A stretch of 18,255 bases of DNA from a virus. Below the pieces are notes generated by a model that was not told the DNA's origin, did no database searches, and saw nothing but the letters and a program-made list of their open reading frames with translations. Both the position numbers and the translations under genes were made by a program. Of this stretch, positions 7,514 through 15,786 are shown piece by piece; position 1 is the stretch's first letter, and each line of letters starts with the position of its first letter. The stretch lies in the UHGV virus genome UHGV-0073224; one strand, given 5' to 3'.

Positions 7514-8866
<1,353 letters not shown>

Positions 8867-8906: not shown

Positions 8907-8985
8907 ATCAAATTAAACCACACCTATGGTGTATGCATTTATTTGCATACATTCAATCAATTGTTATCTAAGGAAATACTTACAT

Positions 8986-9264
8986 ATGCAACTTACAAGT
9001 ACTCGCAAGAAAGCGAATGCAATTACAAGCAACATCCTGAATCGAATTGCTGTACGTGGTCAGCGAAAGGTTGCCGACGCGTTAGGGATTAATGAATCGC
9101 AAATTTCGCGATGGAAAGATAGCTTCATCCCCAAAATGGGAATGCTTCTGGCTGTTCTTGAATGGGGTGTTGAAGACGAGGAGTTGGCGGAACTGGCTAA
9201 GAAAGTAGCCAGAATGCTGACAAAAGAAAAAGCCCCGAAGAACGGCGAATTCTTCGAGGCCTGA
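8986..9264 (+). CDS. cII: CII-like transcriptional activator (P22 C1-like rather than lambda CII)
   Basis: Track ORF 8926..9264; ATG at 8986 with AAGGA RBS; MQLTSTRKKANAITSNILNRIAVRGQRKVADALGINESQISRWK...LLAVLEWGV with the CII HTH motif. Confidence 0.8.
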   Translation: MQLTSTRKKANAITSNILNRIAVRGQRKVADALGINESQISRWKDSFIPKMGMLLAVLEWGVEDEELAELAKKVARMLTKEKAPKNGEFFEA

Positions 9265-9298
9265 TGTAGAAAGACTGGATCAATCCACAGGAGTAATT

Positions 9299-9943
9299 AT
9301 GACATACGAAAATGACAAATTCCAGGTTCTGAAGAGCATGAAGGTGCCAGATGATTTTAAATCAAATGGCTTTGTTTATGTGCTTTCTAATGAGTGCATG
9401 CCAGGAATTTATAAGATTGGGATGACTAAGCATTCACCAGAAGTTAGGGCTAAAGAAATTTCAGCCTCTACTGGCGTTCCTAAGCCATTTAAGGTGATAG
9501 CAGCCTTTCATTCAAATAATCCCGCATCAGATGAAAAACTCATGCATAAAGCCTTTGCAAAAGAGAGGCTTAGTGATAATCGAGAGTTTTTCAAGCTTGA
9601 AGATAATGAGCTTTCTGAATCTCTAAATGAAATAAGGGCGCTGGTTGGCCCTGAAAGAAATGGCGAGACGGCAGAATACGCAATTTACGACTCATTCATT
9701 TCTTTTCGCCATGAAAATGAGCTTGATCTTAATGAGGAGCTTATAGAGCAAGGTCTGGGTAGTGTAGTTGGTCATCTTCCTGCGGTGAAAAATTTCCTTA
9801 TTCGCGCCGGAATTGATTACGCGAAGCAACTGATAAGCAAATATAACTCATCGATAGTTATTAATACAGATGGCAGTGTGGTGATGGTTAAGTCTCTTGA
9901 AGCCCAATGCTTTGATGCGGAGGTTGGAAATGAGCCTGGCTGA
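9299..9943 (+). CDS. T5orf172 (GIY-YIG-like) domain protein inserted between cII and the replication genes
   Basis: Track ORF 214 aa; AGGAG RBS; N-terminal region GFVYVLSNECMPGIYKIGMTKHSPEVRAKEIS...PFKVIAAFH...EKLMHKAFAKERL...REFF fits the recalled T5orf172/MUG113 pattern. C-terminal half unassigned. Confidence 0.6.
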   Translation: MTYENDKFQVLKSMKVPDDFKSNGFVYVLSNECMPGIYKIGMTKHSPEVRAKEISASTGVPKPFKVIAAFHSNNPASDEKLMHKAFAKERLSDNREFFKLEDNELSESLNEIRALVGPERNGETAEYAIYDSFISFRHENELDLNEELIEQGLGSVVGHLPAVKNFLIRAGIDYAKQLISKYNSSIVINTDGSVVMVKSLEAQCFDAEVGNEPG

Positions 9944-10772
9944 AGTATTTTACCTGTCGAAGAGTGAACCTGTTGAACAGGAGCGAAGAGTGGCTGATAT
10001 CGATGATGGTTACACCAGATTCGCTAACGAGCTGCTGGAAGCTATCGCAAGTGCTGATTTAACCGCTCGCCAGTTGAAAGTTATGCTGGCCTACGTCCGG
10101 AAAACATATGGATTCAATAAGAAAACAGATCGAATAGCCGATGAGCAAATTGCTCAGTTAACAGGACTGTCAAGGCAGAATGTTAACAAGGCTAAAAAAG
10201 AACTGATTTCAATGAATTGCCTGTTTATGGATGGAAATCAAATCGGTGTAAACAGTGAGGTATCTGCGTGGCAATTCAGCAAGTGTCTCCAAGTTAGCAA
10301 CTTTGTCTCGAAGTTAGAGACAAAAAATGTCTCCAAATTAGAGACACTCAATGTCTCGAAGTTAGAGACACACAAAAGACATTCTTTAAAGACAAAAGAA
10401 AATATTAATAAACCCCCTATATCCCCCAAAAAAGTTTCTCAGAAGTTCGACCCGCTAGAAACAGAGTTGCCTGATTGGTTATCAGCAGAAACATGGTTGT
10501 CGTGGGTTACCTATCGCAAGGAGATAGGTAAGTCGATCAAGTCTAAGCAAAGTGTCACTCAGGCTATCAACGTTCTAAGCAGAAGTCTGGAGAAGGGATA
10601 TACACCTGAAGAAATTATAAACCAGAGCATCGCCAGTGGTTGGCAGGGGATTTTTGAACCCAAGACTCCAAAGGGGAAATCTCAACCGAGGCCGCAGCAG
10701 CGAGCTATGCAGGAAAACTTTGCCGCCAAAGATTACGGGCAAACTGAAATGCCTTCATGGGCGCAGGAGTGA
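9930..10772 (+). CDS. replication initiator, lambda O type (N-terminal origin-binding domain; divergent C-terminus)
   Basis: Track ORF 9897..10772 begins at a TTG; ATG (MSLAEVFYL) at 9930 with GGAGG RBS; ...GYTRFANELLEAIASADLTARQLKVMLAYVRKTYGFNKK... is O-N-terminal-like; origin iterons lie inside the gene. Confidence 0.8.
   Translation: MSLAEVFYLSKSEPVEQERRVADIDDGYTRFANELLEAIASADLTARQLKVMLAYVRKTYGFNKKTDRIADEQIAQLTGLSRQNVNKAKKELISMNCLFMDGNQIGVNSEVSAWQFSKCLQVSNFVSKLETKNVSKLETLNVSKLETHKRHSLKTKENINKPPISPKKVSQKFDPLETELPDWLSAETWLSWVTYRKEIGKSIKSKQSVTQAINVLSRSLEKGYTPEEIINQSIASGWQGIFEPKTPKGKSQPRPQQRAMQENFAAKDYGQTEMPSWAQE
10284..10370. repeat. replication origin iterons: four 19-bp palindromic repeats inside the initiator gene, followed by an AT-rich stretch
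   Basis: TGTCTCCAAGTTAGCAAC, TGTCTCGAAGTTAGAGACA, TGTCTCCAAATTAGAGACA, TGTCTCGAAGTTAGAGACA at about 22-bp spacing, then AAAGAAAATATTAATAAA. Encodes the repeated VSKLET motif. Confidence 0.7.
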
Positions 10773-10774
10773 AT

Positions 10775-11668
10775 ATGAATACGACAAATGGTTACAATCT
10801 GGCACTGCAAAGGCAACTTGTAGACTCAAAAATCAATGACATTTCTGATCTGAAACAGAAACTTGAGTTTAGCAAAATTGGATCAGCATCAGATGGAATG
10901 TCAGTTACCAGCACAGTGGAAGAGTGCGAGAAACACGGTAAATATACTTCCTATGAGAAATATCTGACCATCTCAGGAAAAAGAATTACTTCAAGTAAAT
11001 CTGAGTGCCCACAGTGCCTTGAGGAGAAAATTCGTAAGAAAGAGATTGAACGTGAGCAGGCAGAACAAAGAGCAAGACAATCAAAAATTGAATATTTGTT
11101 GAATTCTCTCAATATTCCAGAGAGGTTCAAAAATTGCACTCTTCAGAATTATGAGCCTGTTAACGATGATGCAAAGCGAGTTCTTAAGGTATGCCAGGCA
11201 TATGCCAGTAAGTGGCCTGAACGCCTTCAGAAAGGTGGCGGACTGGTCATGTGTGGTAAGCCTGGAACTGGAAAGAACCACCTTGCACTGGCTATCGCTA
11301 GGCACGCCATTATCGAGCATCAAAGCTCTGTGATATTTACCACTGCGTTGAAAATTGCCAGAGAGTACAAATCAACATGGTCTAAGGCCGCAACCAGAAC
11401 TGAAGAAGAAGTCATTAGGCAATTTACGCATCCTGACTTGTTAATAATCGATGAGGTTGGCGTGCAGTTCGGCAGTGATGCTGAAAAGCTAATCATGTTC
11501 GAAATTATCAACACCAGATATGAATACATGAAGCCAACAATCCTGATTAGTAATCAGAGCAAAGATGAACTTTCGGCATTCATTGGTGAGCGTGTTATTG
11601 ACAGGATGAATGATGGCGGCGGATGCACCCTTGCGTTTACATGGGATAGTTACAGGAGCAGATCGTGA
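10775..11668 (+). CDS. DnaC-like (IstB-type AAA+) helicase loader
   Basis: Track ORF 10757..11668; ATG (MNTTNGYN) at 10775, 2 nt after the initiator stop; Walker A GKPGTGKNHLA and Walker B LLIIDEVG. Confidence 0.85.
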   Translation: MNTTNGYNLALQRQLVDSKINDISDLKQKLEFSKIGSASDGMSVTSTVEECEKHGKYTSYEKYLTISGKRITSSKSECPQCLEEKIRKKEIEREQAEQRARQSKIEYLLNSLNIPERFKNCTLQNYEPVNDDAKRVLKVCQAYASKWPERLQKGGGLVMCGKPGTGKNHLALAIARHAIIEHQSSVIFTTALKIAREYKSTWSKAATRTEEEVIRQFTHPDLLIIDEVGVQFGSDAEKLIMFEIINTRYEYMKPTILISNQSKDELSAFIGERVIDRMNDGGGCTLAFTWDSYRSRS

Positions 11669-15630: not shown

Positions 15631-15705
15631 GGGTCAGTCGTATAAAGGTCATTACGGAAGGCTGTTAACCTTCTTATCGTGGTTCGAGTCCACGCTGTCC
15701 CGCCA
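15631..15705 (+). tRNA. tRNA-like gene, anticodon GUU (Asn) by manual fold
   Basis: Acceptor GGGTCAG/CTGTCCC, anticodon arm GAAGG-CTGTTAA-CCTTC, T-arm CGTGG-TTCGAGT-CCACG, 3' GCCA. D-arm is non-canonical (3-4 bp stem). Confidence 0.5.
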
Positions 15706-15710
15706 AACAT

Positions 15711-15786
15711 GCTGGTTTAGCTCCAATGGTAGAGCGGTCGCCTTGTAAGTGAATAGGTAGCGGTTCAAATCCGTTAACCGGCACCA
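15711..15786 (+). tRNA. tRNA-like gene, possibly Thr (UGU); anticodon stem imperfect, possible pseudo-tRNA
   Basis: Acceptor GCTGGTT/AACCGGC, D-arm GCTC-CAATGGTA-GAGC, T-arm AGCGG-TTCAAAT-CCGTT, 3' ACCA. Expected anticodon stem GTCGC/GTGAA does not pair; loop CTTGTAA. Confidence 0.4.

Follow-up and report, generated by a model that had tools for sequence, protein, structure and literature searches.

A T5orf172 (GIY-YIG) nuclease-like gene placed within the 5' end of the replication initiator gene of a lambdoid phage

T5orf172 is regarded as a subfamily of GIY-YIG homing endonuclease genes found in ICP1, T5-like and other lytic phages, where these genes occur at genetic-exchange boundaries, adjoining essential genes (Barth, Dunham and Seed 2023, PMC10448857). 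Among the known T5orf172 homing genes, 87% encode CapR, DUF723 or DUF4397 zinc-finger (Zn-finger) DNA-binding repeats; the same domain is found in Odn, where it is joined to RepA_N and cuts a satellite origin, and gave rise to the regulator CapR (PMC10448857). The nuclease domain of SNIPE/PD-lambda-1 is likewise an active GIY-YIG enzyme (PMC13190303). Here we describe a T5orf172/GIY-YIG nuclease-like gene at positions 9299-9943 of the UHGV virus genome UHGV-0073224, an 18,255-nucleotide (nt) stretch of DNA that was analyzed as a whole and is referred to as the window. The gene lies between a cII-type activator gene and an O-like replication initiator gene, and a literature search returned no paper that ties a GIY-YIG gene to the lambdoid cII-O junction.

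The gene, its two domains and the cassette that contains it were delimited as follows (SD, Shine-Dalgarno sequence; aa, amino acids):
9274-9304, no strand assigned: conserved lambdoid boundary sequence ACTGGATCAATCCACAGGAGTAATTATGACA, the left recombination joint (alignments with phages N7 and mEpX1)
9305-9974, no strand assigned: cassette proper, 670 nt in place of the 42-nt lambda-type O leader AATACAGCAAAAATACTCAACTTCGGCAGAGGTAACTTTGCC (same alignments)
9299-9943, plus strand: T5orf172/GIY-YIG nuclease-like gene, 214 aa, ATG start
9368-9634, plus strand: N-terminal T5orf172/MUG113 domain (aa 24-112), GIY-YIG fold (Pfam; predicted fold)
9635-9898, plus strand: C-terminal domain (aa 113-200), family-specific, acidic, alpha/beta (predicted fold)
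9919-9974, plus strand: new SD GGAGG (9919-9923) and recoded first 15 O codons, supplied by the cassette (sequence; comparison with N7 and mEpX1)

Two phages without the gene served as references, i.e., N7, which has the same cII as the window (identical up to the junction), and mEpX1, which has the same O allele. In both, O follows cII after 32-34 nt. Alignment showed that identity with N7/mEpX1 runs through ...ACTGGATCAATCCACAGGAGT(C/A)ATTATGACA and stops at 9304, position 9295 being A in carriers and C in gene-less genomes, and that it resumes from 9975 at GAACAGGAGC.... The boundary sequence at 9274-9304 contains both the SD AGGAG (9289-9293), which precedes the nuclease-gene ATG by five nt, and the ATG-ACA start itself; the nuclease gene uses what is, in gene-less relatives, O's own ribosome-binding site and start. 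In the window, O begins at an ATG at 9930 that is preceded by the SD GGAGG of the cassette, and its N-terminus reads MSLAEVFYLSKSEPV, replacing MTNTAKILNFGRGNFA over 15 codons. The 3' end of the nuclease gene overlaps this O start by 14 nt (9930-9943), exactly as an earlier reading of the bare sequence (the original prediction) had it. Given that the nuclease gene takes the SD and start of O and recodes its first codons, the cassette sits inside the O 5' end, not in an intergenic gap. The original prediction had pictured a 214-aa open reading frame (ORF) with its own ribosome-binding site filling the gap between cII and O, where lambda has no gene: the ORF and the insertion relative to lambda-type genomes are borne out by the cII-O junctions of N7, mEpX1 and 26 gene-less Escherichia coli genomes, while the ribosome-binding site turns out to be that of O and the gap to be the O 5' end.

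The sequence displaced by the cassette is itself conserved. The exact 42-mer of the O leader was found in at least 120 viral contigs and in no copy anywhere in the window; in 101 contigs chosen by exact match to the 42-mer, it was flanked by at least five cII-body and at least six O-body clusters at 90% identity. In phage Sf6, the stretch of the left joint is annotated as a "bsq5; boundary sequence". The same slot, directly to the right of bsq5 and to the left of the initiator, is taken in other lambdoids by small accessory genes such as Sf6 gene 42 (HK97 gp53 homologue), which, unlike the gene described here, encode unrelated 53-aa proteins that are not nucleases. The GC content of the cassette (39-41%) is the same as that of its flanks, so there is no compositional sign of a foreign origin.

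Pfam searches matched the N-terminal half of the protein to MUG113 (PF13455; aa 38-111, E 1.2e-15, 58.3 bits against a gathering cut-off of 22.3) and to T5orf172 (PF10544; aa 24-112, E 1.1e-14, 55.2 bits against a cut-off of 20). The predicted fold is the alpha/beta fold of GIY-YIG enzymes, with SLX1 and I-TevI as the best PDB matches, and the T5orf172/MUG113 pattern recognized by the original prediction is thereby supported by both profile and fold. Fifty-two homologues were found. Full-length homologues (37 sequences, 33-83% identity) originate in Escherichia, Klebsiella, Pectobacterium, Pantoea, Cronobacter, Enterobacter and metagenomes. Across these 37, G24, Y27, Y38, K39, G41, R50, E53, H83, R95, E96 and F97-F98 are invariant, E96 lying in an NREFF motif. 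Residues Y27/Y38/R50/E96 are predicted from this conservation to be the GIY-YIG catalytic set, their equivalence to Y6/Y17/R27/E75 of I-TevI being one of motif order and not of residue-level superposition. The full protein matched PHROGs families of unknown function (phrog_8430 and phrog_16524), and an NCBIfam search of the protein gave no meaningful match.

The C-terminal half is of a different kind. Pfam returned no match in aa 113-214, and profile, sequence and fold searches of the C-terminal domain against Pfam, PDB and BFVD gave none either, so that it stays unassigned, as originally described. A search of 1.84 billion representatives with the C-terminal profile retrieved only 15 clusters, nearly all of them 200-245-aa proteins with the domain at the same position; because these share essentially one architecture, there are no other domain contexts from which a function could be borrowed. 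Against a 71%-identical copy, dN/dS (the ratio of nonsynonymous to synonymous substitution rates) was about 0.1 in both halves, with dS saturated, and both domains are under purifying selection; the last 14 codons, which overlap O, were unconstrained in the same comparison. With 52 homologues, a dN/dS of about 0.1 and RefSeq annotation in 19 E. coli genomes, the ORF at 9299-9943 is a real gene. One metagenomic homologue from ENA (P0032, 202 aa) presented an apparent in-frame fusion of the C-terminal domain to O; it has an extra Lys within a Lys run when compared with O, and was judged most likely to be a frameshift/homopolymer sequencing artefact.

The gene is optional among close relatives. 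It was detected in 19 of 5,426 complete E. coli genomes, where RefSeq names its product a "GIY-YIG nuclease family protein", and a close homologue was present in a single one of 50,697 phage records, that of Escherichia phage CurroJimenez_Bas106 (Bas106). Of 47 complete E. coli genomes that share the O allele of the window (98.6-99.8% identical), 19 have the gene; another 26 lack it, and in these the matches all start exactly at 9975. The recoded O N-terminus is always accompanied by the nuclease gene in complete E. coli genomes, and an uninterrupted N7-type cII-O junction is present in at least 107 genomes. Being absent from N7, mEpX1 and the 26 prophages with the same O allele, the gene is not a universally conserved lambdoid replication factor. 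The original prediction had stated that it would be wrong if the T5orf172/GIY-YIG profiles did not match significantly or if the gene were universal; the matches are significant, and the gene is found in only 19 of the 47 E. coli genomes that share the O allele.

Carrier genes are 98.4-99.8% identical to one another, yet they follow at least four cII alleles, among them that of lambda itself and an HK97-like one, and the left joint of all carriers, with their four cII alleles, falls within the 31-nt boundary sequence. On the right side, the O N-terminal half is common to all carriers at 99-100% identity, whereas the C-terminal half and the adjoining helicase loader gene vary in some. The block of cII, nuclease, O and loader is 99.8% identical to that of Bas106, where the nuclease gene is annotated as a "hypothetical protein" (Bas106_0049); the window is nonetheless a mosaic relative of Bas106, not Bas106 itself, with 56% of it covered at 97% identity. 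In contrast to its relatives Huey, Dewey and Louie, Bas106 was reported to form clear plaques and to behave as non-temperate on E. coli K-12, with no obvious defect in its lysogeny genes (PMC11990801). An early-expressed nuclease could be relevant to this phenotype, although it concerns a single phage and 19 E. coli prophages carry the gene.

Starting from what was directly established, i.e., the domain identity and fold, the conserved catalytic set, the anatomy of the insertion, the optional distribution, the conservation of the replaced site and the purifying selection, we tentatively favor the reading that the gene is a homing-endonuclease-like selfish or competitive nuclease cassette. The gene would be transcribed early in lytic growth, from pR and along with cII, O and the loader, and would be translated from the former ribosome-binding site and start codon of O, with O re-started by translational coupling from the new SD/ATG in the 3' end of the cassette. 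The T5orf172 domain would be a catalytically competent DNA nuclease which, in a co-infection or on induction of a polylysogen, would cut a lambdoid genome lacking the gene in or near the 42-bp O leader, a sequence that the carrier does not have. Such a cut would mean destruction of the rival, or else repair with the carrier as template, by which the cassette is copied in, with the conserved blocks at 9274-9304 and from 9975 onward as homology arms. Homing genes are expected to be sporadic among near-identical genomes with a precise insertion point, and to disrupt in the carrier a conserved sequence of an essential gene; both features were observed here, the disrupted sequence being the 42-mer O leader. 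The presence of this 42-mer between several cII and O alleles, and its loss from the carrier, are as expected of a homing target. The joining of a nearly identical gene (98.4-99.8%) to at least four cII alleles also speaks for a mobile cassette, although ordinary recombination at boundary sequences accounts for it equally well. Homing, which the original prediction had listed among candidate roles, or competition is on these grounds plausible, though unproven.

The T5orf172 homing genes of ICP1, T5-like phages and Plateaulakevirus (Barth, Dunham and Seed 2023, PMC10448857) are among the nearest precedents. The present gene likewise encodes a small two-part protein with the nuclease domain at one end, is free-standing, lies beside an essential replication gene at an exchange boundary, and is optional among close relatives. 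It differs from them in having an acidic domain, with no DUF723 or DUF4397 Zn-fingers reported by Pfam, and in being a single copy at a fixed position in a temperate lambdoid host instead of one of many paralogues. Relative to I-TevI and the T4 Seg-type enzymes, the C-terminal domain is acidic and contains no recognizable DNA-binding domain, there is no intron, and the protein belongs by sequence to the T5orf172 branch and not to the canonical Pfam GIY-YIG family.

Several observations weigh against a homing-type cassette. An attached sequence-specific DNA-binding module, a further mark of homing genes, was not found: the C-terminal domain gave no helix-turn-helix (HTH) or other match, and DUF723 and DUF4397 gave none at E <= 1 in Pfam, a library assumed to hold both and which does not include the custom CapR profile. 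No Cys-rich motif was visible on reading the sequence of the C-terminal half. The C-terminal domain has an isoelectric point (pI) of 4.6 and a net charge of -8 (pI 5.1 for the whole protein), in contrast to the basic DNA-binding domains of homing endonucleases. ICP1 homing genes are multi-copy and partly decayed, whereas each genome has one copy of the present gene, and RefSeq annotates its 19 copies, without exception, as intact coding sequences. Both breakpoints lie in conserved sequence, where ordinary lambdoid homologous recombination would also fall, and single-nucleotide haplotypes over 9975-10400 placed the carriers in essentially one O haplogroup (diagnostic 9985G and 10256T), with one recombinant. 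Given these breakpoints and the one haplogroup, a single origin followed by ordinary recombination suffices; the distribution fits such an origin with recombinational spread, and neither requires nor excludes nuclease-driven homing. The haplotype comparison, which bears on repeated independent insertions, accordingly neither supports nor refutes homing. Lastly, a constant position upstream of initiators that are not homologous to one another is unexplained by one conserved DNA target. The breakpoints, the one haplogroup, the single intact copy and the fixed position before unrelated initiators all feed the main alternative, which is taken up below.

Family-wide synteny was assessed in 50 clusters (90% identity), for which IMG/VR, one genome per species, public phages and assemblies were the sources. 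An ORF of 240-350 aa begins between -85 and +12 nt from the stop codon of the nuclease gene in 45 of the 50, and the position just before an initiator gene is kept by relatives down to about 35% identity. By Pfam, these downstream ORFs were Phage_rep_O (13), HTH_36/DnaT-like (6) and DUF1376 (1), with most of the others sharing the N-terminus MARSRNIKPGFF; all five downstream ORFs sampled with PHROGs, one of them of the MARSRNIKPGFF type, matched replication initiation or DnaD-like loader families. Two nucleases that are 77% identical (L032 and L034) precede unrelated initiators. The upstream neighbor varies across the family, i.e., cII, YdaT-like and others, and the pattern extends to Salmonella phage S107, Proteus phage Brookers and Burkholderia phage KL4, the KL4 homologue being a 132-aa form without the C-terminal domain. 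In the IMG/VR locus L047, the initiator (340 aa, MARSRNIKPGFF-type) holds an inserted HNH endonuclease domain (Pfam HNH, E 6.5e-11), a second nuclease module tied to the same replication slot. The neighbors of a 319-aa homologue in Vibrio phage K303 are all hypothetical proteins and were uninformative, and the C-terminal part of this homologue is unassigned.

A sister clade of the family (33-37% identical, 225-250 aa; homologues P0029-P0040, at loci L035, L047-L059, L067-L070 and L078-L088) ends in ...GIYGPxxPxEF, ...EPIPF, ...SDDSDIPF or ...DFDDAPF. The C-terminal tip of E. coli SSB is DFDDDIPF, and the resemblance suggests docking to SSB-interacting proteins; the clade to which the window belongs has no SSB-like tail.

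The main alternative, which we hold to be possible but doubtful, is that the protein serves the replication module as an accessory nuclease, targeted by protein contacts and not by DNA sequence. The acidic C-terminal domain, with its SSB-like tail in the sister clade, would dock an SLX1-like GIY-YIG domain on a protein of replication or repair, for example the replisome, the O-some or a factor of the host that interacts with SSB, and the enzyme would cut branched or replicating DNA, i.e., either host forks, resulting in host shut-off and the freeing of replisome parts, or phage intermediates, helping the change of replication mode. The recurrent position directly upstream of an initiator-size ORF, out to the Salmonella, Proteus and Burkholderia phages, the placing of 77%-identical nucleases before unrelated initiators, an acidic C-terminal domain without DNA-binding features and the SSB-like tails of the sister clade all argue for such a role, as do long-term purifying selection on one copy per genome and the lack of decayed copies among the 19 RefSeq genomes. 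The best fold matches are to the structure-specific nuclease SLX1; sequence identity to SLX1 is, however, only 9-13%, the protein has no RING domain and no known SLX4-like partner, and the likeness may reflect the shared GIY-YIG core alone. Moreover, the gene is dispensable, being missing from phages that are viable and from 26 prophages that share the O allele, and the lambdoid gene order is conserved for every accessory gene, which makes the fixed position weak evidence of coupling. The SSB-like tail is missing from the window's own clade, and the protein has no known partner; its C-terminal domain bears no relation to O.

A broader form of this idea, which we consider unlikely, is that these genes make up an unrecognized family of initiator-coupled temperate-phage nucleases. 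In these, a GIY-YIG domain would be combined with a new acidic adaptor that recruits it to the host replisome, the SSB interactome or the origin complex during early lytic growth, there to cut the replicating DNA of the host or of a rival, with an SSB-tail mimic in the sister clade. Such a protein would be a replication-coupled weapon or mode switch, and not a sequence-specific homing enzyme.

The link to initiators also recalls Odn of ICP1 and the Odn-like proteins of coliphages Inny, Muut and Mt1B1_P17, in which a T5orf172 nuclease is tied to initiator functions and is used in conflicts between mobile elements. By analogy, the present gene could encode a nuclease aimed at the replication origin of a competitor, whether satellite or lambdoid, although we regard this as improbable. 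Odn and its coliphage relatives pair T5orf172 with the DNA-binding domain of an initiator and cut the origin of a satellite (PMC10448857), and in all carriers the gene is linked to the origin-binding half of the initiator and its iterons. Furthermore, phrog_8130 (434 positions) matches both the T5orf172 domain (181-257) and the N-terminus of a MARSRNIKPGFF-type initiator (11-102); at the level of sequence, this double match implies that natural, Odn-like fusions of an initiator N-domain to T5orf172 exist among temperate-phage proteins, a hint that would equally suit an accessory replication nuclease. Whereas RepA_N forms part of the same polypeptide in Odn, the nuclease here is a separate gene upstream of the initiator, and Pfam found no RepA_N or other initiator-type domain in the protein. 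The C-terminal domain was also tried as an initiator-like DNA-binding domain, following the Odn model, and rejected, hhalign giving a probability of 1% against O. No candidate target element was identified.

The genes and elements around the cassette are as follows:
8986-9264, plus strand: cII-type transcriptional activator gene, left neighbor (Pfam Phage_CII, E 1.8e-42, full length), with an alternative start upstream, at 8926
9220-9262, minus strand: oop-like intrinsic terminator overlapping the cII 3' end (14-pair stem 9262..9230, then a T run)
9930-10772, plus strand: O-like replication initiator, right neighbor, translationally coupled (Pfam Phage_rep_O, E 3.4e-36)
10281-10375, no strand assigned: putative origin (ori) iterons within O, four copies of approximately TGTCTCNAARTTAGAGACA with a spacing of 20-24 nt (repeat search, families D1 and D2)
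10775-11668, plus strand: DnaC/IstB-like helicase loader (Pfam IstB_IS21, 1.3e-18, and Bac_DnaA, 1.7e-07; Bas106 annotation), its ORF being open from 10757

The iterons, which lie in the O N-terminal half common to every cassette carrier, presumably form a lambda-type origin, as in lambda. A promoter and terminator scan found neither kind of element on the plus strand between cII and O, and four promoter-like sites were found in the region where 4.3 were expected by chance, so that an internal plus-strand site is not claimed. Lacking a promoter or terminator of its own between cII and O, the gene is taken to be expressed in the lytic phase from pR.

This bears on the possibility that the gene is a lysogen-expressed anti-phage defense moron, a relative of PDC-S57 or SNIPE/PD-lambda-1 that cuts superinfecting phage DNA. 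PADLOC matched the protein to PDC-S57 (E 4.1e-29) and PD-Lambda-1 (E 3.5e-12), the SNIPE domain is an active GIY-YIG nuclease (PMC13190303), and PDC-S57 is of similar size (profiles of 212-245 positions); a literature search returned no paper on PDC-S57. These matches are confined to the homologous nuclease domain (aa 21-113), with only positions 3-94 of 212 of the PDC-S57 profile and 355-450 of 496 of the SNIPE profile being covered, and no DUF4041 was found in Pfam. SNIPE is a membrane-anchored host protein of approximately 490 aa with DUF4041, whereas the present gene is phage-borne and in a lytic operon; reading of the N-terminal 23 residues, without a predictor, revealed no transmembrane segment. 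A gene inside the repressed pR operon that is coupled to O and has no promoter or terminator of its own is the opposite of a moron, and we consider a defense role very unlikely. Exclusion from the lysogen, another of the roles offered by the original prediction, is disfavored for the same reason, i.e., the location of the gene in the pR early operon without its own promoter.

The cassette may also affect antisense transcription. The terminator at 9220-9262 is named as that of oop from what is known of lambda, and we take the 42-nt O leader to hold the -35 region of pO, the promoter of the antisense oop RNA. If so, the cassette would split a lambda-type pO (9296-9324, minus strand) between its -10 and -35 elements: the -10 CATAAT, complement of the ATTATG at the start codon, is kept with its upstream TG, while TGGAAT, part of the nuclease coding sequence, stands where lambda and N7 have the -35 TTGAGT. 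The oop-like terminator is intact. Expression of oop, and hence the control of cII, may be altered by the cassette. Such a placement, itself drawn from knowledge of lambda and from the terminator, would fit a domesticated T5orf172 protein that no longer cuts and that regulates, in the manner of CapR, early transcription, replication or the split oop promoter. CapR provides a precedent for a T5orf172-derived regulator (PMC10448857), but its function resides in a Zn-finger domain, none of which was found here with Pfam, which lacks the CapR profile. In addition, every residue of the GIY-YIG catalytic set is invariant in the family, and we consider a regulator of this kind very unlikely. At the right joint, a leftward promoter-like site (9976-9947, minus strand, TCAACA-18-TAAAAT) was noted that is within the chance expectation and is not claimed, and a weak terminator-like hairpin (9652-9635, minus strand) lies approximately 300 nt downstream of it. 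An RNA antisense to the nuclease gene, over its 3' half, could arise from this pair, with the count of promoter-like sites being that of chance.

Elsewhere in the window, an Rfam search found two tRNAs and no RNA family at the nuclease locus. The tRNAs are a phage-borne tRNA-Asn(GTT) at 15631-15705 and a tRNA-Thr(TGT) at 15711-15786, both on the plus strand of the late-regulatory region. A 158-aa ORF at 7514-7990 (minus strand), with a hydrophobic N-terminal segment, lies directly downstream of a cI-like repressor gene (7915-8547), with an overlap of 76 nt between the two. Pfam gave no match for this ORF, which is unannotated at the matching place in Bas106 and may be a lysogen-expressed moron in the repressor operon.

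The GIY-YIG domain call was already available in RefSeq, and nuclease genes have been described at module boundaries before. What is new is the exact anatomy, in which a cassette takes the start of O, recodes O and replaces a conserved leader, together with the family-specific acidic C-terminal domain where a DNA-binding module would be expected, the confinement of the gene to temperate lambdoid phages and its invariant coupling to an initiator gene. If the encoded nuclease acts in homing or exclusion, the gene would clearly exemplify T5orf172 nucleases at work in temperate phages of the lambdoid group, set exactly on a "boundary sequence" of the kind long suspected of driving lambdoid mosaicism, and would offer an experimental handle on whether nucleases create lambdoid recombination joints. 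If the nuclease is instead recruited by a partner, it would add an accessory function to the best-studied phage replication system, and would define a new adaptor domain as well as, in relatives, a mimic of the SSB tail. In both cases, the value of the locus lies in its precise anatomy and in a synteny that holds across the family.

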